11,685 nucleotides of DNA from assembly GCA_038889075.1 (NCBI GenBank), contig JAWAHS010000006.1, positions 68,540 to 80,224 on the forward strand, read 5' to 3'. The notes below the pieces were generated by a model, which had not been told where the DNA came from, searched no databases, and saw only the letters and a list, made by a program, of their open reading frames with translations. Positions 11 through 11,073 of the stretch are shown one piece after another (positions within the stretch are counted from its first letter, which is position 1; each line of letters opens with the position of its first letter). The position numbers and the translations under genes are program-made. The stretch comes from Ignisphaera sp. GTDB lineage: Archaea > Thermoproteota > Thermoprotei_A > Sulfolobales > Ignisphaeraceae.

Positions 11-223
11 TCAAGGACCTTCAAATCCACAGTTTGGACACTTATATATAACTGATGATGATCTACATCTATAGCATCTCCAAATCACCACAGCACCACA
101 GCTTGGACATTTAAAGCTTACAGCTTTTTCTGTTGGTGGTACAAGTCTCTTACAGCTGGAGCATATTCTTAGCTGAGCAGCTTCGTGGACTGGTATCTGT
201 AGCTGAATGGACAGTTCAACCAC
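11..223 (-). CDS. Small double zinc-ribbon protein (DUF1610 / HVO_2753-like; predicted RNA-binding, translation-associated)
   Basis: 70 aa with four CxxC pairs (CSSC, CPSC, CYRC, CPNC) and the family-typical FxCPxCG...IWRC..CR.....YKCPxCGFEGP C-terminus. GTG start. A TTTTAAGT TATA-like box lies on the minus strand at ~252-259. Confidence 0.9.
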   Translation of the reverse strand: MVELSIQLQIPVHEAAQLRICSSCKRLVPPTEKAVSFKCPSCGAVVIWRCYRCRSSSVIYKCPNCGFEGP

Positions 224-301: not shown

Positions 302-682
302 ATGGTGGAGGCATTGTTCTCTGATGATGTAAAGCAGGTTATAGTTGTACGGACGGATATCAAGATGGGTAAGGGTAAGCTAGCAGTACAGGTAGCACAT
401 GCTGCTGTAGAGGCTGTGTTTAAATGTATGGAAAGCGATAGGTGTAGGGAATGGCTTGAGGTGTGGCGTAGAAGTGGTCAGAAGAAGATAGTCGTTAAGG
501 TAGATTCGCTATCGAAACTTATAGAATTGAAGAAGAGGGCTGAGGAGCACTCAATACCATATGCACTAATCATGGATGCGGGACTAACACAACTCCCCCC
601 AGGAACCGTGACAAGTCTGGGACTAGGACCTGCACCAGCTACACTATTAGACAGTATAACAGGGTTGCTACCCCTTTTATAG
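302..682 (+). CDS. pth2: Peptidyl-tRNA hydrolase, archaeal/eukaryotic type (Pth2)
   Basis: Signature motifs KQVIVVRTDIKMGKGKLAVQVAHAA, GQKKIVVKV, DAGLTQLPPGTVTSLGLGPAP and ITGLLPLL. Confidence 0.97.
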   Translation: MVEALFSDDVKQVIVVRTDIKMGKGKLAVQVAHAAVEAVFKCMESDRCREWLEVWRRSGQKKIVVKVDSLSKLIELKKRAEEHSIPYALIMDAGLTQLPPGTVTSLGLGPAPATLLDSITGLLPLL

Positions 683-3562: not shown

Positions 3563-5113
3563 ATGAAGCTAGCATTCGAAGATGTGTATATACCAGGTAC
3601 GTCAGTAATCATAGAGCGCACGCTTTCAAAGCTTATTGAGAAAGGGGTTGTTAGAGGTCGTATTCTAATCCCTAGGGAATTCATATACTTCTTCGAATCT
3701 ATGGCACGCAATGGCAGTGCTGTAGGTCTGCTTGGACTAGAGGAGCTTTCAGCTATTAGAGGTGCTATTAGTGAGGAGATGGGGATATCTATAGAGGTTA
3801 TCGATAGCGGTTACAGACTGCCTCTACAGCTCGATCAAAAATTTCTGGACAGTCTTGTAGTTGATATTGCAAAGAGGACTGGTGCAAAGGTTTTAACACA
3901 TGATAAGATTCAGTACATCACCTGCAAAACTCTTAATGTAGATGCAATGCTTATCGAGTATAGCGATAGAGGTCTTCTATGGTTTGAAAAGTACTTTGAT
4001 TCTGAAACACTCAGTCTCCATATAAAGGAAGGAGCACCCATTATGGCTAAGAAAGGTAAACCTGGTGAGTGGAGGCTTGCTATTATAGATGAGAATCCTG
4101 TGAAGCGTAATGATGTAGAGCTACTGATTGAGGAGATTGTTAGAAGAGCGAGATCTGGTGATGGGTTTATAGAGACTGAGAAGCAGGGTTTAATGCTTAT
4201 ACAACTAGGCGATTATAGAATTGTAGTTGTTTCACCACCCATAAACACGGTCTACGAACTGACGATAACAAGACCTATAGTTAGGCTGAGGCTGGAGGAC
4301 TACAACCTACCTGAAAAACTTATTAGGAGATTGGATGAGAAGGCTGAGGGTATACTGATTGCTGGAGCACCGGGTATGGGTAAGACAACATTTGCCCAAG
4401 CTCTTGCAGAGTACTACAGTAGGAAGGGGAAGATAGTTAAGACTATCGAGTCTCCGAGAGATATGAGGCTTCCAAATGTTGTATCACAGTATTCAAAGTA
4501 CTATGCAACATCTAGAGATCTACATGATATTCTATTGCTTAGTAGACCTGACTATACGGTATTCGATGAAATGAGGGATGACGAGGACTTTATGATATAT
4601 GTTGATCTGAGGCTTGCCGGTATAGGTATGATTGGTGTTGTGCATGCAACATCGTCTATAGATGCTGTTCAACGGTTTATTAGAAGGGTTGACATAGGTA
4701 TGATACCGAGCATCATAGATACTGTTGTATTCATTGATAAAGGGAGGGTTGCGAAGGTCTATGAGCTTCTCCTAACAGTAAAACTACCAACTGGTTTAAG
4801 GGAAGCGGATTTGGCTAGACCTGTAGTTGAGGTTAGGGATTTTCTAACCGGTGAGCTTGAGTATGAAATCTATGTATTTGGTGAGCAGACCGTTGTTGTC
4901 CCTGTTAAGAGGATTCGGAGGGAGCTAGTTACAGATAGGGTTACATCTATTGTTAAAAAGGTTCTTCCAGAGGCTAGTGTAAGCATTGACAATGGAACCA
5001 TAGTTATAGATATGCCGAAGAGGATCTACAGTCAGAATACAATGAAGCTTATACGTAAGCTAAAGAAGAAGCTGGATAGAATGGGGTACGATGTTGAGAT
5101 TAGACTAGTTTAG
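3563..5113 (+). CDS. PINA: PIN-domain + P-loop ATPase + C-terminal KH-like domain (PINc/VapC-family ATPase, Holliday-junction branch migration)
   Basis: N-terminal PIN-like fold (YIPGTSVII ... LTHDKIQ), FDSETLSLHIKEG, Walker A GAPGMGKTT, KTIESPRD, LLSRPDYTVFDEMRD, GVVHATSSIDAVQRFI and LREADLARPVVEVRDF. The gene is adjacent to hjc. Confidence 0.92.
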   Translation: MKLAFEDVYIPGTSVIIERTLSKLIEKGVVRGRILIPREFIYFFESMARNGSAVGLLGLEELSAIRGAISEEMGISIEVIDSGYRLPLQLDQKFLDSLVVDIAKRTGAKVLTHDKIQYITCKTLNVDAMLIEYSDRGLLWFEKYFDSETLSLHIKEGAPIMAKKGKPGEWRLAIIDENPVKRNDVELLIEEIVRRARSGDGFIETEKQGLMLIQLGDYRIVVVSPPINTVYELTITRPIVRLRLEDYNLPEKLIRRLDEKAEGILIAGAPGMGKTTFAQALAEYYSRKGKIVKTIESPRDMRLPNVVSQYSKYYATSRDLHDILLLSRPDYTVFDEMRDDEDFMIYVDLRLAGIGMIGVVHATSSIDAVQRFIRRVDIGMIPSIIDTVVFIDKGRVAKVYELLLTVKLPTGLREADLARPVVEVRDFLTGELEYEIYVFGEQTVVVPVKRIRRELVTDRVTSIVKKVLPEASVSIDNGTIVIDMPKRIYSQNTMKLIRKLKKKLDRMGYDVEIRLV

Positions 5114-5126
5114 GTTGGAGAAGACG

Positions 5127-5597
5127 CTATCTTCTATCCATATACTCTTCAATGCTCCTCGAAATTTTCCTTGATAGATAGGTAAAGAGATCCTCAGATC
5201 GGTCTATGGCATCCCTAGATATCTTCACCCTACTTGAGGTATCCGAAGCGATATTCAACTCGTTGATTGGTATCGCCTTCCAGATCCTTAAACTAGCTAT
5301 TCTAATTGCTACTATTGCTTCACCAGAGGCTCTCCTAGCAAATTCTATGATCTTATTCAGCTGAGTTCTATCGATATAAATAGAGCTGGGTTTACTTCTC
5401 ACCTTAACCTCAAACACAAACACCTTTCCATCCTTTATAGCAATAACATCTGGATACACGCTTCTCCTAACCTTAGCACCACTAGCAGGTCCTCTCATTA
5501 CAGCAAAACCCATCTTCCACAGCTTTGTTACAAGCTCCCTCTCTGCTCGAAATCCTCTCGCCCTAGCTCTAGGTATATCGGCATCAGCTTGCTGCAT
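5127..5597 (-). CDS. hjc: Archaeal Holliday junction resolvase Hjc (start revised to ATG 5597, 156 aa)
   Basis: RGFRAERELV, GFAVMRGPASG, PDVIAIK and FEVK (PD-(D/E)xK catalytic residues). The 21 extra N-terminal residues in the ORF track are read through an AT-rich promoter. ATG 5597 has a GGTG SD at ~5608-5611 and a TTTTATATATAA box at 5621-5632. Confidence 0.93.
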   Translation of the reverse strand: MQQADADIPRARARGFRAERELVTKLWKMGFAVMRGPASGAKVRRSVYPDVIAIKDGKVFVFEVKVRSKPSSIYIDRTQLNKIIEFARRASGEAIVAIRIASLRIWKAIPINELNIASDTSSRVKISRDAIDRSEDLFTYLSRKISRSIEEYMDRR

Positions 5598-5888
5598 AGA
5601 GATGATGCACCAGCACAATCTTATATATAAAATATAGGTACTTCCCTTAAATAACTGCAATCAAAATACTGCAGCCTAAATACTCTAAAAAAGAGACTGG
5701 AGTACTGTGTTGCCGAAGCTGATGGATACATAGATGTTTGAAATTGTAGACTAAAGGTAGAGGAATCTACATGATAATAGTATAGGGTAATTGAGGTGCT
5801 AGCACAATGGTTAGCAATCTGCTATAAACCTGGGTAGTAAGATATTTATCTAGTCTAGGAGTTTAGATTAGGAAATAGGTGTGCATTT

Positions 5889-6878
5889 GTGGAGCTGAAG
5901 CTCTGTGAGGAATACAAACAGTCTACCTATACTATAAATAGTCTTGCAGAGGATCAGACGCTTACCGGGATGGGGGAAGGAGTCATATCGAGAATATCGC
6001 TACCGCCAATACCTGTGGTGCAAAGCTATCTAATAGTGATTTTAAGTAGAGATCCTACGTATACAAGTTTCACAAAATGGAAAATCTCACTAAATAATAT
6101 TATACTTACGAGGGAGTTTAAGCCGCACATAGATATGCAGATAGGTGAAAAGCTAGCGCAATCCCTATTTATATACGATGTGACTAAGACTATATCCCGA
6201 GATGTAAATCTTAAGATAGGGTATGAAGGGAAGAAGCCGATAAAATTAGATGCTGCAGTACTAATTTCAATTCATAGATATGAGGAATTCTACCTAGGCT
6301 TCAACTTCATAATGAAAATCCTTAATCTAAATTCATCAATAGAGCTACCGAAGGCTGAGCTATCCTTTAAACCTACAGAGAGGCGCCTAAATATGGGTAT
6401 AGTTGCTGAGAAGGCCTGTACCTTGGAGCTGGAGGTTATAGGCAATCTGGGTAGGAGTACAAAGCATGGATTGACGCAAGGGTTTAACATGGTTGAAGTA
6501 CCAATAGAAGGTGCACTGAATATAGATTCAATTAATACTAGATGCAACAGTAGCTCGGCTAGACATATATTCACGTGCCTCTTCTCACTGTATTCAAATT
6601 ATCCAACAATAGATGTGAAGAGTGTAGAGATGTTGGAGGATGGTGTATCTCTAACACTATACAATACAGGTACTACCAGTGCTGATGATATTGAGCTGGT
6701 GTTTCTCAGACACGGTGTACAGGTGTATAGATTTAGGATAGGGGGTGTAAAGCCAGGTGAAGAGAAGGTGGTGCTGCTACCGAAGAATATAGCTAGGATG
6801 AACAACGTTACTGCGAGGGTAATATGGTACAAGGCGCTGAGGATGTTTAGCAAGGATTTGAATATAAATATAGGATAG
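5889..6878 (+). CDS. Hypothetical protein, beta-rich, with a C-terminal CARDB-like Ig-fold segment and no evident signal peptide
   Basis: 329-aa ORF with host-like codon usage, GTG start and a GGTG SD at 5878-5881. The C-terminal LTLYNTGTTSADDIELVF...GVKPGEEKVV matches the N.G...A/PGE pattern of CARDB-type Ig domains. Confidence 0.75.
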   Translation: MELKLCEEYKQSTYTINSLAEDQTLTGMGEGVISRISLPPIPVVQSYLIVILSRDPTYTSFTKWKISLNNIILTREFKPHIDMQIGEKLAQSLFIYDVTKTISRDVNLKIGYEGKKPIKLDAAVLISIHRYEEFYLGFNFIMKILNLNSSIELPKAELSFKPTERRLNMGIVAEKACTLELEVIGNLGRSTKHGLTQGFNMVEVPIEGALNIDSINTRCNSSSARHIFTCLFSLYSNYPTIDVKSVEMLEDGVSLTLYNTGTTSADDIELVFLRHGVQVYRFRIGGVKPGEEKVVLLPKNIARMNNVTARVIWYKALRMFSKDLNINIG

Positions 6879-6890
6879 AATATGGTATCC

Positions 6891-7208
6891 CTATGCTCCT
6901 TGGGTACTAGCCTGGGATACATTTCTAGCAGGCTTCGTCTTCCGGGCCTTGATAACCTCATCTACTTGTGTAAGGAATTTTCTAAGGTTTTCAACATTTT
7001 CCTCATGTACACTTTTCCTCCTGGTATCTACTGGAATGTTCAGCTGCTTTGCAAGTGTGACATCTATTCCAACAGCCTTTATCTCACCTATACTAAATCC
7101 TCTACCTATGCGTACACCGGTATCCACACCCTTAAACTTTAGTATTCTAGGTCTCTTAACTATAGGCTTTGGAACCTCTATCTCAATGCAGCACTCTTCA
7201 CTTGTCAT
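6891..7208 (-). CDS. rpl13e: 50S ribosomal protein L13e (start probably ATG 7208 rather than 7226)
   Basis: PKPIVKRP, RIGRGFSIGEIKAVG and IPVDTRRKSVHEENVENL motifs. A GGGAG SD precedes ATG 7208. The TATA box at 7240-7251 places the transcript start downstream of ATG 7226. Confidence 0.93.
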   Translation of the reverse strand: MTSEECCIEIEVPKPIVKRPRILKFKGVDTGVRIGRGFSIGEIKAVGIDVTLAKQLNIPVDTRRKSVHEENVENLRKFLTQVDEVIKARKTKPARNVSQASTQGA

Positions 7209-7239
7209 TGAAGACTCCCAGAGCATACTGATGGGGGAG

Positions 7240-7251
7240 AGCTTATAAGCT
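7240..7251 (-). promoter_or_regulatory. TATA box of rpl13e, inside a 12-bp palindrome AGCTTATAAGCT
   Basis: The TTATAA core lies ~35 nt upstream of ATG 7208 and the palindrome overlaps the stop codon of the thiolase gene. Confidence 0.5.
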
Positions 7252-8257
7252 ATATAGTCGGATTCCTATAAACACTTTGTTGGGAAGGTGGTGCATCTAG
7301 AACTCCACTTCTCATTCTATTTATCAGTTCACAGAATTTGCATAGCTCTCTATTAGGTGATGTAGGCTCTCCACAGAGTCTGCAGTACGGCAATTCTATC
7401 GATTTAAAGACCCTATTCTCTATAGCATCCTCAAGTAGTGTGTCGATAAATTTTAGAAATTCCAGCTGTATTCCAGGTCTCCAGACTTCTAATGATATGA
7501 GCATCTCTCTAATCCTAACCCTCAACGTTGGTCTTTGCGAGATGTAGGGGCACTCCGTCTCCTGGAATCTGTACCCCATTATATATGCTAGCATCGTCGT
7601 CTCGTATTCGTATATACTTCTTAGAGGCTTTACTCTCTTAACTAGCTTGCTGCTATGTACATTGCTTAGTGGGTGGAGCTGTACTAATCTCATGAAGTCG
7701 CCCCTCAGTATATTTATTACATAGGTCTGGACCTCATCATCTAGATTGTGTCCTGTGGCAACTCTGTTCAGTCCTAACATTCTCGCATAGCTATTTAGAA
7801 CCCTTCTCCTCGCAATTCCACAGTATGTGCAGGCGCTAGCAATATAGTCGCTCTCTATTGATAGTTGGTACTTCATATAGTCGTCTACACTATAGTTCAG
7901 CTCCTTCTTTAGGCTGGTTCTGATGCACTCTACCCCCTTATCCCTGCATATACTCTCGATATACTCAAACACCTCATCTCTATTATAGTCATGGATACCC
8001 TCTTCAATCATAAGGCCAACGATCTTTGAAGGACTACAAACTTCGCTGATTATGTTTAGCAGTACAAAGCTGTCCTTCCCACCAGATAGCCCTATCAGAA
8101 CACCATCTCCAGGTAGAACCATTGAATATCTATTCACCTGATCCAAGACCCTAGCCCTTATATCCTCATGGAAGCAATCCCTACACAGCCTTAATCCACT
8201 GTGACGCTGGTAGACAGTAGCTCTCTTAGCACCACATATATCACACCTTACCTCCAT
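7250..8257 (-). CDS. tRNA 2-thiolation protein, TtuA/Ncs6(Ctu1)-like (TIGR00269 family)
   Basis: N-terminal Zn site (CDIC...CRDC), PP-loop SGGKDS, CTYCGIARR, ATGHNLDDE, KPLR, ECPY and C-terminal CRLCGEP...CKFC. Confidence 0.93.
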   Translation of the reverse strand: MEVRCDICGAKRATVYQRHSGLRLCRDCFHEDIRARVLDQVNRYSMVLPGDGVLIGLSGGKDSFVLLNIISEVCSPSKIVGLMIEEGIHDYNRDEVFEYIESICRDKGVECIRTSLKKELNYSVDDYMKYQLSIESDYIASACTYCGIARRRVLNSYARMLGLNRVATGHNLDDEVQTYVINILRGDFMRLVQLHPLSNVHSSKLVKRVKPLRSIYEYETTMLAYIMGYRFQETECPYISQRPTLRVRIREMLISLEVWRPGIQLEFLKFIDTLLEDAIENRVFKSIELPYCRLCGEPTSPNRELCKFCELINRMRSGVLDAPPSQQSVYRNPTI

Positions 8258-8284
8258 AAACCACCATCTACACTAATCTAGGAT

Positions 8285-8545
8285 CTAGCCATTCCTAGTT
8301 GCTATAACCTCATCAACACTGTGGACTACGGCTCCCATACCCTCTAGGGTATTCTTTACAGTATCGAAATCTATTTCAGAACCCTCAATAGTTATTGTTA
8401 GAGTGAGCGTCTCTACATCTATTTCATTGACCTTAATGTTTATCCTACTAACACCGTCTATTTCAAGGAGTCTGCGTGCAACATCTATTATTGTAGGACC
8501 TTTCAATGTTTTCAGGACATCCAGTACCAGTTTTGTTATACCCAT
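8285..8545 (-). CDS. DUF211 family protein
   Basis: Family-typical LVLDVLK...P, GVSRINIKVNEIDVET, ITIEGSEIDF and GAVVHSVDEV. Co-oriented and 27 nt upstream of the thiolase gene. Confidence 0.88.
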   Translation of the reverse strand: MGITKLVLDVLKTLKGPTIIDVARRLLEIDGVSRINIKVNEIDVETLTLTITIEGSEIDFDTVKNTLEGMGAVVHSVDEVIATRNG

Positions 8546-8717
8546 TTTTCTCCACAGCCCACTACTCTATATTAGTGGTTGCCTATATTAACTTATTAAT
8601 TGTTTTGATGCTGGGTATACTATGTGTTAATACGGTCTCCATATATGTTATTGCTCTATAGGCTGTGTACAGAGGTTTTATATGTATATTAGCTAGTGTG
8701 TACTGGTAGTGTGTGCT

Positions 8718-9392
8718 ATGGATGTCAATGTTGTAAGGATGGCTCTTCTCGAGTGCTACCATAGATATGGACAGAGATTCGTTGTAGTGATGAAAACAGC
8801 TATAGGTATTGCTAAGGAGAATAGGCTTAGGGGTGAGCAGCTTCCTGGGGATTTCGATTATAGGACTCTAGTGGATAGGCTCAACTCTATAGGGGTTCAG
8901 TACAACCCATCCCTTCTTCTCAGAGCTCTGGAGCGGGAGTACGGTGTTATAGAAACATCTTATAGGAGCAGCAATCAGCATTGGTATAGGTTTAGAGATC
9001 TCGAGTCTGTTGAACAGATTCTGAATTCTGTAGCTGGTATAGATGTTGCTGAGGAGGAGCCCGAGGTTGCTATGGTGAAGATACAGATTAAAGCTCTTCA
9101 AATCAGGTACTGGCTTGGTAAATTAAAAACCCTTAGTATAAAGACTAGGCTAAGCAGATCCGATATTGAGCTGTTTAGAAGATTTTCATTTTCCATACTT
9201 CCAAAACTTGTAAGGATTTTGAGGAAAGCTGAAGAGTATGAGGATCAACTCTATACTGAAATAGGTATAGTGAAAGAGATTGTATCGCTAGCCCAGATTG
9301 TTGCTGAGAGGGTTAATCAGGACAGTGCATACGTATCTAAACAGCTGGATGGTATAGATATTGCTGAGGACAGCTATCAACCCTCTATATAA
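8718..9392 (+). CDS. Hypothetical protein with a predicted N-terminal winged-helix domain and helical C-terminus (start ATG 8718 or GTG 8709)
   Basis: GDFDYRTLVDRL...YNPSLLLRALEREYGVIETSYRSSNQHWYRF reads as helix-turn-helix plus a beta-wing. TTTTATAT TATA box at 8676-8683. Confidence 0.75.
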   Translation: MDVNVVRMALLECYHRYGQRFVVVMKTAIGIAKENRLRGEQLPGDFDYRTLVDRLNSIGVQYNPSLLLRALEREYGVIETSYRSSNQHWYRFRDLESVEQILNSVAGIDVAEEEPEVAMVKIQIKALQIRYWLGKLKTLSIKTRLSRSDIELFRRFSFSILPKLVRILRKAEEYEDQLYTEIGIVKEIVSLAQIVAERVNQDSAYVSKQLDGIDIAEDSYQPSI

Positions 9393-9529
9393 TCGCTACA
9401 TATATTTAGACAGTACTCTTCAACATCTTCGCATATATCTTCGCATACTCTATCTTCGCACTTGCTGCAGTCCACTACGGTATCGCATATATCTTCGCAT
9501 ACAGTTTCTCCTTGGCTACCTACAGGCAT
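9377..9529 (-). CDS. Unannotated 50-aa acidic cysteine-rich miniprotein (CxxxC repeats)
   Basis: Manual translation: MPVGSQGETVCEDICDTVVDCSKCEDRVCEDICEDVEEYCLNICSDYIEG*. It has 8 Cys, 15 D/E and 2 K/R. A GGGGA SD lies at 9535-9539 and TTATATA/TTATAAA boxes at 9566-9581 on the minus strand. It fills an otherwise empty gap and is shorter than any ORF in the supplied track. Confidence 0.75.
   Translation of the reverse strand: MPVGSQGETVCEDICDTVVDCSKCEDRVCEDICEDVEEYCLNICSDYIEG
9425..9502. repeat. Intragenic direct repeats: 20-nt TCGCATATATCTTCGCATAC x2 and 9-nt ATCTTCGCA x4
   Basis: The 20-mer occurs at 9429-9448 and 9483-9502 (offset 54 nt = 18 codons). The 9-mer occurs at 9425, 9437, 9452 and 9491, with all offsets multiples of 3, and encodes C-E-D on the minus strand. 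Confidence 0.95.
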
Positions 9530-9586
9530 GTATTTCCCCAGTATAGAGTTTGGTTTGGCAACACCTATATAACCTTTATAACCTTA

Positions 9587-10612
9587 CTACACTACGCTAT
9601 CTATAGTTATAGGTTCTGTAACAAGTGTGTATATATCGTAGTCTCTCCACATGCCAAGCCTTCCATATGGAATTGTGTTGTATTCCTGTAGAATTTGCTG
9701 GAGTTCGTTGAATAGATTCCTATCTATTTGATTTATCAATGCGTATACAGTTTGGGATACGTTGTACTCTACAATTCTCGATGTATCTATCAATCTATGT
9801 TTTCTAGATTCCGAGAACAGCTTTTCTGTAGCTCCTGGCATAAGGGGGTGTGAGGAGCTGTAGCTTGTGGTGATATACGTTATACTGTAGCTGTCCACGG
9901 GTATCTTTATTGCTGTATGGAATCTCGATGCCTTTGTACCATGTGTATAGATCTGTACTGTATCTCCCACCACATCCTCTTTTGATATGGAGGATAGTGT
10001 GTGTATCGATATGTAGTCCAGGTTGAGCTTTCCAACAAGCTCTGCTACCCTACTAATATCCTTCTCCATGTATATGTATCTTGGGAGTAGGTCGAGGGGC
10101 CATGTATATACAAGTTTTCTAAACCTTATCAGAACACCATTTGATAGTGCCATGATACCTCTATCCAAATCTATCTTTCTAATACTTGAGGCTGTAATGG
10201 ATTTGCCTATTAGCGATACTCTAAGTAGCGACTCTATATACTGGAGTATGGTGTTGGTGTAGCAGAGTGTTTTCTGCTCTAGCCATTCTATAAACCAGTT
10301 TCTCTGTACCTGTACTGATCTATATCCAAGGATCTTCCTCTCTATAGGCCCCTCCTTAACTACGTATCTCTCAACACTATAGCATCTGATATCATCTGCA
10401 ATACCGCTTCCTCTAATTAATTCAACGAGTTTCTGTGGAATGAATAGTGGTGATTTTAGGTATCTGTAGACCCTGCCTACAATTCCCACATATCCTCCTC
10501 TACCATATGTAGAGTCTACAGCTAGATAGCTTCTACCAAGATCTCTAGCTACAGATGCTGCTCTGATGGCCGCTATACCAGAGCCTACGATAGCTACATC
10601 AACTTCGATCAC
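9587..10612 (-). CDS. FAD/NAD(P)-binding oxidoreductase-like protein (divergent; protoporphyrinogen oxidase / UDP-galactopyranose mutase-like architecture), substrate unknown
   Basis: Rossmann motif VAIVGSGIAA, an acidic residue ending beta-2 followed by GG (AVDSTYGRGG), central FRKLVYTWPLD and C-terminal PYGRLGMW. GTG start with a GAGGGA SD at 10621-10626. Confidence 0.75.
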   Translation of the reverse strand: MIEVDVAIVGSGIAAIRAASVARDLGRSYLAVDSTYGRGGYVGIVGRVYRYLKSPLFIPQKLVELIRGSGIADDIRCYSVERYVVKEGPIERKILGYRSVQVQRNWFIEWLEQKTLCYTNTILQYIESLLRVSLIGKSITASSIRKIDLDRGIMALSNGVLIRFRKLVYTWPLDLLPRYIYMEKDISRVAELVGKLNLDYISIHTLSSISKEDVVGDTVQIYTHGTKASRFHTAIKIPVDSYSITYITTSYSSSHPLMPGATEKLFSESRKHRLIDTSRIVEYNVSQTVYALINQIDRNLFNELQQILQEYNTIPYGRLGMWRDYDIYTLVTEPITIDSVV

Positions 10613-10660
10613 AGTTGGAATCCCTCTACATACACGTTCTTCACTACATGTATTCTACAC

Positions 10661-10668
10661 TTTATATC
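10661..10668. promoter_or_regulatory. TATA box possibly shared by the divergent oxidoreductase and pilin-like genes
   Basis: TTTATATC on the plus strand lies ~26 nt upstream of ATG 10693. It reads GATATAAA on the minus strand, ~50 nt upstream of GTG 10612. It is the only clear TATA-like run in the 80-bp gap. Confidence 0.45.
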
Positions 10669-10692
10669 CTCTCTACTGTATACGGGGCTTCA

Positions 10693-11073
10693 ATGTATAT
10701 GTGGAGAGGCGTTTCAAGCCTTGTTGCGGTAGCTGTAGTAGCCTCTATAGCATCGATACTCGGTGTTGCTGCCTATACGCTCCTCTGCACAGGCTATCAG
10801 ATAAACACCCAGCTATATAGAGGACTGCCAGCAATAGCTAGATGCTGGAACCTTACACAGGTATGGCTCTGTAGCATTAGAACCTTTGAGGGAATCCATG
10901 GCAACATCTCTATAGTTACAGCTGAGGGCCTGGCTCCATGTGGATATAGATACCTGGTAGCTGGTGAGCCATCTATATGCACTGTAAATAGTTCATCGAG
11001 ACCGGTTGCAGCTCTAATAGATGCTGGTGGCACTGTCTATTCCTATTCTATAGATGTTGGTGATATATGGTGA
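10693..11073 (+). CDS. Archaeal type IV pilin-like protein with class III signal peptide (start revised to ATG 10693, 126 aa)
   Basis: MYMWRG|VSSLVAVAVVASIASILGVAAYTLL has a short basic leader, an RG cleavage site and a ~25-aa hydrophobic helix. A small globular domain follows with Cys residues and N-x-S/T sequons (NLT, NIS, NSS). Confidence 0.7.
   Translation: MYMWRGVSSLVAVAVVASIASILGVAAYTLLCTGYQINTQLYRGLPAIARCWNLTQVWLCSIRTFEGIHGNISIVTAEGLAPCGYRYLVAGEPSICTVNSSSRPVAALIDAGGTVYSYSIDVGDIW

Follow-up and report, generated by a model that had tools for sequence, protein, structure and literature searches.

A conserved acidic mini-protein with eight cysteines in Ignisphaera: a predicted helical hairpin and candidate thiolate metal site

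A small gene for an eight-cysteine protein

Conservation of the reading frame across genomes marks the minus-strand open reading frame at 9377..9529 of the window (the whole stretch of DNA analysed here, 11,685 nucleotides) as a real, conserved protein-coding gene of Ignisphaera archaea from hot springs, the product of which is a small, strongly acidic and cysteine-rich protein. The most likely function of this mini-protein, judged from its sequence, is the holding of metal ions or of disulfide cross-links, and our best, if tentative, reading is that of a helical hairpin with a thiolate-lined, metal-binding face.

In the ORF list of the window, the frame starts with ATG and comprises 50 codons for amino acids, and its translation is MPVGSQGETVCEDICDTVVDCSKCEDRVCEDICEDVEEYCLNICSDYIEG. 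An earlier note on this DNA had described the same ORF with an identical peptide, and direct reading agrees with the cysteine spacing given there (C-x3-C-x5-C-x2-C-x4-C-x3-C-x6-C-x3-C), as does our calculation with its net charge of about -13 (D+E = 15 and K+R = 2, hence -13). Cysteine makes up 8 of the 50 residues, or 16%. By eye, the N-terminus lacks a hydrophobic stretch, consistent with the earlier statement that there is no signal peptide. The features of the gene are as follows.

9377..9529, minus strand: coding sequence, with its stop codon, of the acidic 50-aa mini-protein with 8 Cys (ORF list, translation and orthologues in loci L001, L002 and L003)
9398..9499, minus strand: cysteine core, codons 11-44, with three C-x-x-[IVM]-C-x-x-hydrophobic units and one CxxC turn (8 invariant Cys in 13 of 13 sequences, unit table, helical moment above beta moment)
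9500..9529, minus strand: N-terminal tail, codons 1-10, variable between relatives in both length and sequence (alignments with in-frame indels)
9429..9509, no strand assigned: span of a 27-nt internal direct repeat (repeat search, family D1, 89% identity)

The two copies of the repeat, at 9429-9455 and 9483-9509, encode two near-identical cysteine units. Cysteine richness alone does not lift the ORF beyond chance: of the 95 frames in the window that run for at least 40 aa from stop to stop, two reach 8 Cys in a 50-aa stretch, namely this ORF and a Zn-ribbon gene at 11..223, and two further frames, both overlapping larger ORFs, reach 7. It is conservation that raises it above chance. The Zn-ribbon gene matches PRK14890 at 2.4e-25. 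On the strand opposite the mini-protein gene, an antisense frame is open in the window as a 61-aa ORF (9361..9546). A tRNA search found nothing for the mini-protein, and an Rfam search of the whole window gave no match.

Conservation of the gene

The gene is present in all four genomes examined, which comprise that of the window, two Ignisphaera MAGs and one Desulfurococcales MAG, and the four loci (the window, L001, L002 and L003) were compared over 40 ungapped core codons. Across these codons the sense frame is the only one that is stop-free in all four loci. Its pN/pS is 0.07-0.30, compared with 0.84-6.4 in four other frames; the third-position-matched antisense frame has a pN/pS of 0.11-0.59 and carries stops in three of the four loci. 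Third-position differences are in excess (19 of 24 between the window and L001, binomial P 5e-6; P 4e-2 to 5e-6 over the six locus pairs), and codons of conserved cysteines flip between TGC and TGT with the cysteine retained. The earlier note had taken this for a real small protein and had proposed a search of relatives for conserved cysteine spacing with synonymous changes; that search was run, the spacing is conserved and the synonymous flips are present, so that, with the single open frame and the orthologues, the view of a real protein stands.

In L001, where the flanks are rearranged, DNA homology to the window is limited to 9372-9527, that is, to the coding sequence, and in L002 the homology breaks at window 9501-9607 and the start codon is shifted. 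Between the window and L003, protein identity is 52.5% for the mini-protein, on a par with orf227 (53%) and higher than for orf341 (31%), orf329 (36%) and DUF211 (46%).

These data bear directly on the reading that the ORF arose by chance, or is a non-coding element, in the gap between convergent genes, with a cysteine content that would be the by-product of a DNA repeat. The 27-nt repeat does underlie two of the cysteine units, 4 of the 95 window frames hold 7-8 Cys per 50 aa, and the antisense frame is open in the window. However, the sense frame alone is open, with low pN/pS, in four genomes, the indels in the tail are in-frame, 13 distinct sequences keep 8 of 8 cysteines, L001 is homologous within the coding sequence only, and nothing in the window matches Rfam. 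The frame, pN/pS and cysteine-conservation data already contradict this reading, to which we give next to no weight.

Family, annotation and range

All eight cysteines occur at identical spacing in 13 of 13 distinct family sequences, among which 16 columns are invariant, the eight cysteines included. The acidic residues D16, E25, D26, E30 and E34 keep a fixed D or E identity, the net charge of members ranges from -10 to -13 with only 2-4 basic residues, and histidine is present in some relatives. When the units are tabulated, cysteine is found at both unit positions in 39 of 39 cases, and isoleucine precedes the second cysteine in 34 of 39.

The suggestion that the protein is hidden and probably unannotated did not survive: a protein set drawn from NCBI includes the exact sequence, which was observed on 27 contigs. 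Within its sequence cluster, NCBI record MDW8085498.1, 'hypothetical protein [Ignisphaera sp.]', is 70% identical to it, and the ESM Atlas contains the exact sequences of the mini-protein (P0001) and of a relative, P0004, though it yields no usable neighbours for them. On the other hand, the remark that the family was not recognised holds, as no described family matches in Pfam, NCBIfam or PDB sequences. For P0001 neither Pfam nor NCBIfam offers a family and PDB sequences give no match; with all 13 members, Pfam at E up to 10 returns noise only, and an 8-member profile finds no PDB sequence at E up to 10. No metal-binding family in Pfam, NCBIfam or PDB sequences is significantly similar. PADLOC and PHROGs searches gave no match, tblastn against phage and plasmid collections did not find the mini-protein, none of 3991 candidates searched for longer or fused forms reached E up to 1, and our literature search found no paper on the family.

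The mini-protein founds a small family, known to date from Ignisphaera and a single related Desulfurococcales lineage, a range that is a lower bound because the genome-contig scan used two strict peptide patterns, neither of which a P0006-type sequence would match. Some apparent relatives were rejected. P0005 (210 aa, E 3e-4) is a low-complexity tandem repeat without the cysteine spacing; in L004 (Nanoarchaeota, tblastn E 6e-4) the match falls on an acidic stretch, rich in CxxxC, of a 1076-aa surface-like protein, and the family profile gives that ORF no score at E up to 100; P0011 (454 aa), listed in the same cluster, is unrelated by eye.

Upstream signals and neighbouring genes

9536..9539, minus strand: G-run GGGG, ribosome-binding-site-like, 6 nt upstream of the ATG (G-rich motif recurring in four loci)
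9565..9581, minus strand: pair of overlapping TATA-like boxes rich in A/T, lying 43 and 52 nt before the ATG (pattern scan; A/T box aligning in four loci)
9587..10612, minus strand: orf341, same-strand upstream neighbour, a basic protein with an N-terminal dinucleotide-binding-type G-S-G...D motif
8709..9392, plus strand: orf227, convergent neighbour (ORF list), its 3' end overlapping the 3' end of the mini-protein gene by 16 nt

A G-rich motif lies 4-6 nt before the start in all four loci, as GGGG, GGGGG, GGTGGG and GAGGTGGG, and presumably complements the 3' end of archaeal 16S rRNA. An A/T-rich box is found about 30 nt upstream of the G-run, again in 4 of 4 loci (comparison of the window, L001, L002 and L003). 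The retention of both elements supports the earlier proposal that the gene has its own SD and TATA signals, and the conserved coding frame, position and upstream motifs together point to a genuine, separately expressed gene. A scan of the window for sigma-70 promoters and intrinsic terminators is not informative for an archaeon.

The same-strand neighbour orf341 adjoins the mini-protein gene in the window, L002 and L003, though not in L001. It has a pI of 9.05, its motif and two invariant cysteines are kept in three orthologues, and its family matches are all sub-threshold (FAD-binding N-terminus, E 0.004-0.4; UDP-galactopyranose mutase, E 0.15-0.19). Its link to the mini-protein gene is uncertain. 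The tail-to-tail arrangement with orf227 recurs in L002 and L003 according to tblastn coordinates; orf227 has no Pfam, NCBIfam or PDB match, with only HscB appearing at E 0.52. In L001, the mini-protein gene lies between an ATPase gene and the pst operon, away from both usual neighbours. Metal-homeostasis, Fe-S-assembly and transporter genes are absent from the conserved neighbours in the window and L001-L003, and Pfam reveals no copper genes near the gene in the window. The gene neighbourhood offers no functional clue. The chromosomal setting is one of housekeeping genes.

Predicted fold

From the periodicity of the sequence we infer a fold, a hairpin and a dimer. Across the core the 100-degree hydrophobic moment is 0.4-0.68, as against a beta moment of 0.02-0.49, and 5 of the 13 family members have no Gly or Pro at all. 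The lag-4 periodicity of cysteine and hydrophobic residues is reached by 13 of 2000 shuffles; an 11-residue repeat register is unsupported, lag 11 being reached by 516 of 2000. Residue 22 is the centre of symmetry for the CX3C pairs Cys 11/15 and Cys 29/33, which are separated by 13 residues.

The protein would begin with a disordered, fast-evolving N-tail, followed by a 40-residue core made of a short helix (about residues 9-20), a CxxC turn with an S/D-x-x-E capping pattern and a long helix (about residues 23-49). On one face of the helix, each C-x-x-[IVM]-C-x-x-hydrophobic unit would present two thiols together with two aliphatic side chains. Units one and two are mirror-symmetric about the CxxC turn (Cys 11/33 and 15/29), and would therefore face each other in the hairpin. 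The third unit (Cys 40/44) is likewise symmetric to the second about residue 36-37, so that in an antiparallel dimer a second chain would cover it.

A metal-binding face and its rivals

In the metal-binding reading, the host is a strict anaerobe, and in its reduced cytoplasm the thiol-lined face would be a metal-thiolate site, with Zn, Cu(I), Fe or an Fe-S cluster as candidate metal. The mini-protein might then serve as a miniature helix-based metal carrier or buffer, or as an electron carrier, and the same four-thiol sites could switch to disulfides. There is precedent for such chemistry in the cited reports: in Csp3, Cu(I) is ligated by CXXXC pairs whose cysteines sit on a single helix (PMC5171941), twin-Cx3C sites in the reduced state bind Zn or Cu (PMC2064014), and small Cys-rich archaeal proteins studied so far are mostly described as assigned Zn or Fe-S binders (PMC13525628, PMC13607799). 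The genus Ignisphaera is strictly anaerobic (PMC3035270). The C21-C33 stretch also bears a weak, non-significant ferredoxin-type likeness: C21-x2-C24-x4-C29-x3-C33 aligns, in P0004, with a motif of 6x1o_B ('Oxidoreductase, Fe-S subunit') at E 0.4, and two of the 13 members hit Fer4_3 with a best, likewise non-significant, E of 2.8. Against the metal reading, the net charge of -10 to -13 with 2-4 basic residues disfavours the added negative charge of thiolate centres. Lys, Gly or Pro, common in metallothioneins and in Fe-S loops, are absent from the mini-protein, which also counts against metal, as do the negative searches for a significantly similar metal-binding family and for conserved neighbours with a role in metal homeostasis, Fe-S assembly or transport. 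Moreover, cytoplasmic disulfides are documented in hyperthermophilic crenarchaea (PMC1188242, PMC3177088), and the even count of eight cysteines thus fits disulfides equally well.

A bolder extension of the metal reading, which we hold to be fairly unlikely, is that of an undescribed class of archaeal cytoplasmic proteins in which a CX3C hairpin of about 40 residues comes together in pairs as a thiolate-lined bundle that would store, buffer or deliver thiophilic metal ions or an Fe-S cluster. The metal or disulfide state might here be set by the adjacent basic dinucleotide-binding protein orf341. If true, it would give Thermoproteota their first helix-based 'mini-Csp/metallothionein', or else a new mini-ferredoxin fold.

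The sequence is compatible with both the metal-binding and the redox/disulfide readings, and we regard a disulfide-stapled helical hairpin as a close rival of the former, possible though on the unlikely side. Two parallel disulfides would link its first two CX3C units in the manner of twin-CX3C proteins, further intra- or inter-chain disulfides would involve the CxxC turn and the third CX3C, and the cross-links would stabilise a 50-aa protein near 90 degrees C; the functional part could be the acidic surface, binding a basic partner, or the CxxC as a redox-active dithiol. The 13-residue separation and mirror symmetry of two CX3C motifs fit twin-Cx3C proteins, described as two antiparallel helices with two disulfides (PMC2064014), although one of the three units is left without an intrachain partner unless the protein oligomerises. 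The cysteine count is even in 13 of 13 members, and in surroundings as negative as these, neutral disulfides should be preferred to thiolates. Intracellular disulfides are reported as widespread in thermophilic archaea (PMC3177088, PMC1188242); however, the name Ignisphaera has 0 occurrences in the disulfide survey (PMC3177088), and the host genus is described as strictly anaerobic (PMC3035270). With its basic character, dinucleotide-binding motif and two invariant cysteines, orf341 could conceivably form a reductase-substrate pair with the mini-protein, but its putative flavoprotein nature is read from sub-threshold matches, the best profile hits being to UDP-galactopyranose mutase and not to a disulfide reductase, and the gene pair is split in L001. 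The same neighbour enters a special case of the metal reading, quite unlikely in our view, in which one or two Fe-S clusters would be bound by the eight cysteines and the acidic protein would exchange electrons, in either direction, with orf341, itself basic and putatively flavin-binding. Size, eight cysteines and acidity all resemble the small 2x[4Fe-4S] ferredoxins, the alignment to 6x1o_B and the Fer4_3 hits (E 2.8 or worse) lean the same way, and in 3 of 4 genomes orf341 lies next to the gene in the same orientation. The host is described as an anaerobic fermenter (PMC3035270). Yet no sequence match is significant, the CxxCxxCxxxCP motif is absent with no Pro or Gly after the cysteines, the predicted all-helical character is unlike ferredoxin folds, and the gene is separated from an orf341 of putative flavoprotein status in L001.

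The earlier note had also entertained an enzyme-modified peptide. A small Cys-rich peptide whose neighbours orf341 and orf227 lack an assigned function could be the precursor of a ribosomally made product, e.g. thioether or SCIFF-like, but no radical-SAM, YcaO, lanthionine-synthetase, protease or exporter family occurs nearby in the window or L001-L003. Conservation is lowest in the N-terminal part, where a leader would lie, and even the start codon has moved, the L001 gene sits between the ATPase gene and the pst operon away from its usual neighbours, and the chromosomal setting is one of housekeeping genes. Without a maturase-like neighbour, with a variable N-terminus and with the gene moved in one genome, this reading is disfavoured and we consider it very improbable.

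Comparison with known systems

By sequence geometry only, the mini-protein is like the twin-CX3C small Tims of the mitochondrial intermembrane space (Tim8/9/10/13), in which two facing CX3C motifs lie in a helix-loop-helix and four neighbouring thiols are described as forming two disulfides or, when reduced, a Zn or Cu site (PMC2064014). Small Tims assemble into hexameric chaperones. There is no sequence similarity between the two (Pfam at E up to 10 gives noise). Unlike the small Tims, the mini-protein has an archaeal host, is cytoplasmic, far more acidic and about half as long as the hairpin arms, has only putative disulfides, and carries four extra invariant cysteines in the CxxC turn and third CX3C.

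In Csp1 and Csp3, which are thiolate-lined four-helix bundles, CXXXC pairs lie on one helix face, with Cu(I) held inside the Csp3 bundle (PMC5171941). The mini-protein has three CX3C motifs, its helicity being suggested by the amphipathic moment and the scarcity of Gly and Pro. The Csp3 monomer is reported as a four-helix bundle with 18-19 cysteines that forms tetramers, and the class as having 13-19 core cysteines (PMC5171941); with 50 aa, 8 Cys and two helices at most, the mini-protein would need to oligomerise for a Csp-like bundle. No Csp family match was found in Pfam or, with the 8-member profile at E up to 10, in PDB sequences. We take the Pfam name of the Csp family to be DUF326.

Metallothioneins are defined by cysteines in CxC, CC or CxxC clusters and by few or no aromatic residues, and hold several metal ions in thiolate clusters. 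Those such as bacterial SmtA and MymT are small, cytoplasmic and of high cysteine fraction, all of which the mini-protein shares. It differs in having no CxC or CC, a single CxxC and the aromatic residues Tyr 39 and Tyr 47, in being predicted helical instead of metal-folded loops, and in its extreme acidity with almost no Lys; no metallothionein family in Pfam or NCBIfam matches it.

Small 2x[4Fe-4S] ferredoxins have about 50-55 aa and eight cysteines, are very acidic and are typical of anaerobes. The mini-protein is unlike them in lacking CxxCxxCxxxCP and any Pro or Gly near its cysteines, the matches at E 0.4 and 2.8 being non-significant. Zinc-ribbon and zinc-finger micro-proteins have two CxxC knuckles for one Zn site, whereas there is one CxxC here. 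RiPP precursors (e.g. SCIFF-type) have an adjacent maturase and usually a conserved leader, neither of which is seen in the window or L001-L003. Finally, EPP00014805 and EPP00002661, two small 'dark' domains of archaea in which eight cysteines are conserved, were proposed in 2026 to be unrecognised multi-metal-binding folds (PMC13607799); the likeness is one of main-text description only, and that text makes no mention of Ignisphaera.

Concluding remarks

Within archaeal proteomes, the layer of small Cys-rich proteins has received little study. The hyperthermophile Thermococcus gammatolerans is reported to encode no metallothionein orthologue (PMC3407056), and it is only now that eight-cysteine 'dark' domains are being flagged as possible new metal folds (PMC13607799). 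The import of the present family is bounded by its narrow known distribution and by a gene neighbourhood that gives no functional clue. It is nevertheless compact, clearly real and cheaply testable, its 50 residues being within reach of synthesis, and it presents eight invariant thiols on predicted helix faces. If the metal state is the true one, the family would provide a new minimal metal-binding scaffold from a hyperthermophile; if it is the disulfide state, it would be the first prokaryotic disulfide hairpin of the twin-CX3C type.

A conserved small gene

The small gene lies at 9377..9529 on the minus strand and encodes, from an ATG start, a mini-protein of 50 codons (P0001), MPVGSQGETVCEDICDTVVDCSKCEDRVCEDICEDVEEYCLNICSDYIEG, identical to the peptide written in the earlier note. 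Its eight cysteines, separated by spacers of x3, x5, x2, x4, x3, x6 and x3, and its net charge of -13 likewise match what had been described there; the charge comes from 15 acidic and 2 basic residues. Two near-identical Cys units are encoded by a 27-nt direct repeat (89% identity). Cys richness alone does not decide gene status: among the 95 stop-to-stop frames in the window with a length of 40 aa or more, two carry 8 Cys per 50 aa, this one and the Zn-ribbon gene at 11..223, and two more, both spurious in appearance, carry 7.

Among 5.8 billion proteins, a word-indexed search returned a single relative, P0002 (53 aa). When 1.84 billion cluster representatives were searched exhaustively with HMMER, P0002 came up again, together with P0004 (51 aa) and a 210-aa protein, which is of low complexity and was discarded as a relative. 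P0006 to P0009 came from a profile search, P0010 and P0012 to P0017 from cluster look-ups. The 90% cluster of P0001 and P0006 also lists the 454-aa P0011, FAD-linked-oxidase-like by eye, whose membership is most likely a clustering artefact. Further, a single scan of 185,579 species-representative genomes by peptide pattern yielded 35 matches, four of which passed tblastn: two Ignisphaera MAG loci (L001, L002), one Desulfurococcales MAG locus (L003) and one from Nanoarchaeota (L004). The last was rejected as an orthologue. Its 1076-aa protein (7340..10570, plus strand) has a signal-peptide-like N-terminus, a weak BclA_C match and an acidic stretch with repeated CxxxC motifs like the mini-protein units, a likeness that is probably compositional, since the family profile gives this protein no score.

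In the alignment of 13 distinct sequences, all eight cysteines are invariant and identically spaced, and the first 7-15 residues differ in sequence and, owing to in-frame indels, in length. Judged by such comparisons, the ORF is almost certainly a gene, and the earlier claim of a real small protein holds: over 40 ungapped core codons from four DNA sequences (the window, L001, L002 and L003), read in six frames, the annotated frame is the only one free of stops in every sequence, with a pN/pS of 0.07-0.30. Four of the five alternative frames give 0.84-6.4; the third-position-matched antisense frame gives 0.11-0.59, yet has stops in three of the four loci. Differences concentrate at third codon positions (between the window and L001, for instance, 19 of 24; P 5e-6), conserved cysteines are encoded now by TGC, now by TGT, and whole-CDS Nei-Gojobori values agree with the core-codon test. 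The tblastn relatives and the codon test thus concur that the Cys spacing is kept amid synonymous changes, a point the earlier note had left to be checked, and there is only the slightest chance that the ORF arose fortuitously.

Moreover, DNA homology between L001 and the window is restricted to 9372-9527, the CDS, with different flanks in L001, and that between L002 and the window drops out across 9501-9607, the variable tail and intergenic spacer. Between the window and L003, the mini-protein is 52.5% identical over its 40-residue core and the neighbouring orf227 53%, with lower values for orf341 (31%), orf329 (36%) and DUF211 (46%).

The SD and TATA signals claimed previously are borne out as motifs, with their roles only putative. 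A G-run stands 4-6 nt ahead of the start in all four loci (GGGG, GGGGG, GGTGGG and GAGGTGGG), and an A/T-rich box about 30 nt upstream of it; we take these to be a candidate archaeal ribosome-binding site and TATA box. The L002 start codon has shifted downstream, with a new G-run ahead of it, and the likely L003 start is a TTG, restoring the MK- N-terminus found in P0004 and P0008.

Genomic neighbourhood

The window comes from an Ignisphaera-like genome (Desulfurococcales) and is housekeeping in character, with genes for a Zn-ribbon protein, TruD, a PilT-type ATPase, Hjc, L13e, TtuA and DUF211, a 126-aa ORF (302..682) and an aspartyl-tRNA-synthetase-like ORF named by eye. The small gene, present once per locus, sits in the convergent gap between orf341 (341 aa, 9587..10612, same strand) and orf227 (227 aa, 8709..9392, opposite strand), overlapping the 3' end of the latter by 16 nt. 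The tail-to-tail overlap is roughly 13-17 nt in the window (9377..9392), L002 (about 5053..5068) and L003 (about 10116..10132), and points to convergent transcripts running through both 3' ends. In the window, L002 and the distant L003 alike, orf341 is followed by the small gene and then by convergent orf227, DUF211 and TtuA. In L001 (9453..15480) the small gene comes after that for the PilT-type ATPase, an inversion breakpoint separates it from orf341, now 9.5 kb away, and a pstSCAB-phoU cluster of about 5 kb (pstB, pstA, pstC, pstS and phoU-like, named by eye from translations) lies between it and orf227. There it retains its G-run and A/T box and so behaves as its own unit.

At its N-terminus the orf341 product carries a conserved G-S-G...D motif of the dinucleotide-binding type; two of its cysteines are invariant, its pI is 9.05, and its family and PDB matches are all sub-threshold. 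For orf227 no match was found in Pfam, NCBIfam or PDB. Phage and plasmid collections, PADLOC and PHROGs gave no defence or viral signal for the setting.

Other features of the window are:

11..223, minus: Zn-ribbon RNA-binding protein, second 8-Cys small ORF, 70 aa, GTG start
5889..6878, plus: orf329, 329 aa, 36-71% identity in L001, L002 and L003
10615..11684, plus: two ORFs, of 152 aa and of 206 aa running past the window end
10566..10820, plus: 84-aa ORF, 7 Cys within 50 aa, overlapping the starts of orf341 and orf152, probably a spurious frame

The Zn-ribbon ORF matches NCBIfam PRK14890 (2.4e-25) and the HVO_2753 family (2e-15) and is kept at 83-84% in L001 and L002. No Pfam, NCBIfam, PADLOC or PHROGs match was found for orf329 or for the 152-aa and 206-aa ORFs. 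The latter two, conserved only in L002 (56-58%) among L001-L003, begin by eye with a basic-Gly-small motif and a hydrophobic stretch, presumably resembling archaeal class III (type IV pilin-like) signal peptides. Within 5135..7257, the orf329-L13e block (5863-7257) occupies the same place as in L001, L002 and L003 but is inverted against all three; the Hjc block (5135-5579) runs as it does in L001 and the other way round from L002 and L003. The only inverted repeats nearby are short and imperfect, and the inversion is either a true micro-inversion or an artefact of assembly.

Proposed fold and function

The core repeats the unit C-x-x-[I/V/M]-C-x-x-[V/I/Y/H] three times; in the unit table, Cys fills each of its two positions in 39/39 cases and Ile precedes the second Cys in 34/39. 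A seven-residue linker containing CxxC joins units 1 and 2, and no spacer separates units 2 and 3. In a helix, positions i, i+3, i+4 and i+7 lie on one face. The mini-protein may form two helices meeting at the CxxC turn, as suggested by a hydrophobic moment that is higher for helix than for beta across the core, the lack of any Gly or Pro in 5 of 13 members, a lag-4 periodicity matched by only 13 of 2000 shuffles, an S/D-x-x-E pattern where the second segment begins and the direct succession of units 2 and 3. Cys 11/33 and Cys 15/29 are placed as mirror pairs about the turn. The pairs Cys 29/44 and Cys 33/40, symmetric about residues 36-37, suggest a hypothetical antiparallel dimer. At five acidic positions, adjacent to the Cys stripe or aligned with it, the residue does not vary even between D and E.

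Our best reading, held tentatively from sequence logic and precedent, is a helix-based metal-thiolate protein. Single-helix CXXXC pairs of Csp3 bind Cu(I) (PMC5171941), reduced twin-Cx3C sites bind Zn or Cu (PMC2064014), small Cys-rich archaeal proteins have generally been taken to bind Zn or Fe-S (PMC13525628, PMC13607799), and Ignisphaera is a genus of strict anaerobes (PMC3035270). However, the extreme negative charge, with no Lys/Arg balancing the thiolate centres, and the absence of Gly, Pro and His speak against it, as does the failure to find a metal-related gene among the neighbours. One form of it, an Fe-S carrier paired with orf341, draws on non-significant motif resemblances and is improbable.

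A disulfide-stapled hairpin of the twin-CX3C type is a close rival, possible if rather doubtful: the Cys count is even and hyperthermophilic crenarchaea use cytoplasmic disulfides (PMC1188242, PMC3177088), although Ignisphaera itself does not figure in PMC3177088. The metal-bound and disulfide states may interconvert. The enzyme-modified peptide precursor offered in the earlier note is very unlikely, in view of the variable N-terminal part, the lack of maturase-like genes among the neighbours in the window and L001-L003, and the gene's separation from both usual neighbours in L001.

A lineage-restricted family

The protein is neither hidden nor unannotated, contrary to what had been supposed: its exact sequence occurs in an NCBI-sourced set, on 27 contigs, and in the ESM Atlas, and P0006 is MDW8085498.1, labelled 'hypothetical protein'. 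The failure to recognise its family was well founded. It resembles small Tims, Csp, metallothioneins and ferredoxins but belongs to none, the sequence-family test being negative and at least one defining feature being absent in each case. A 2026 survey reports two archaeal domains, both unclassified, in each of which eight Cys are conserved (PMC13607799); these left aside, the mini-protein represents, on sequence evidence, a real and conserved family of small proteins, restricted to its lineage and without described relatives. Its Cys architecture is striking and fully conserved, and the family belongs among the Cys-rich mini-proteins.
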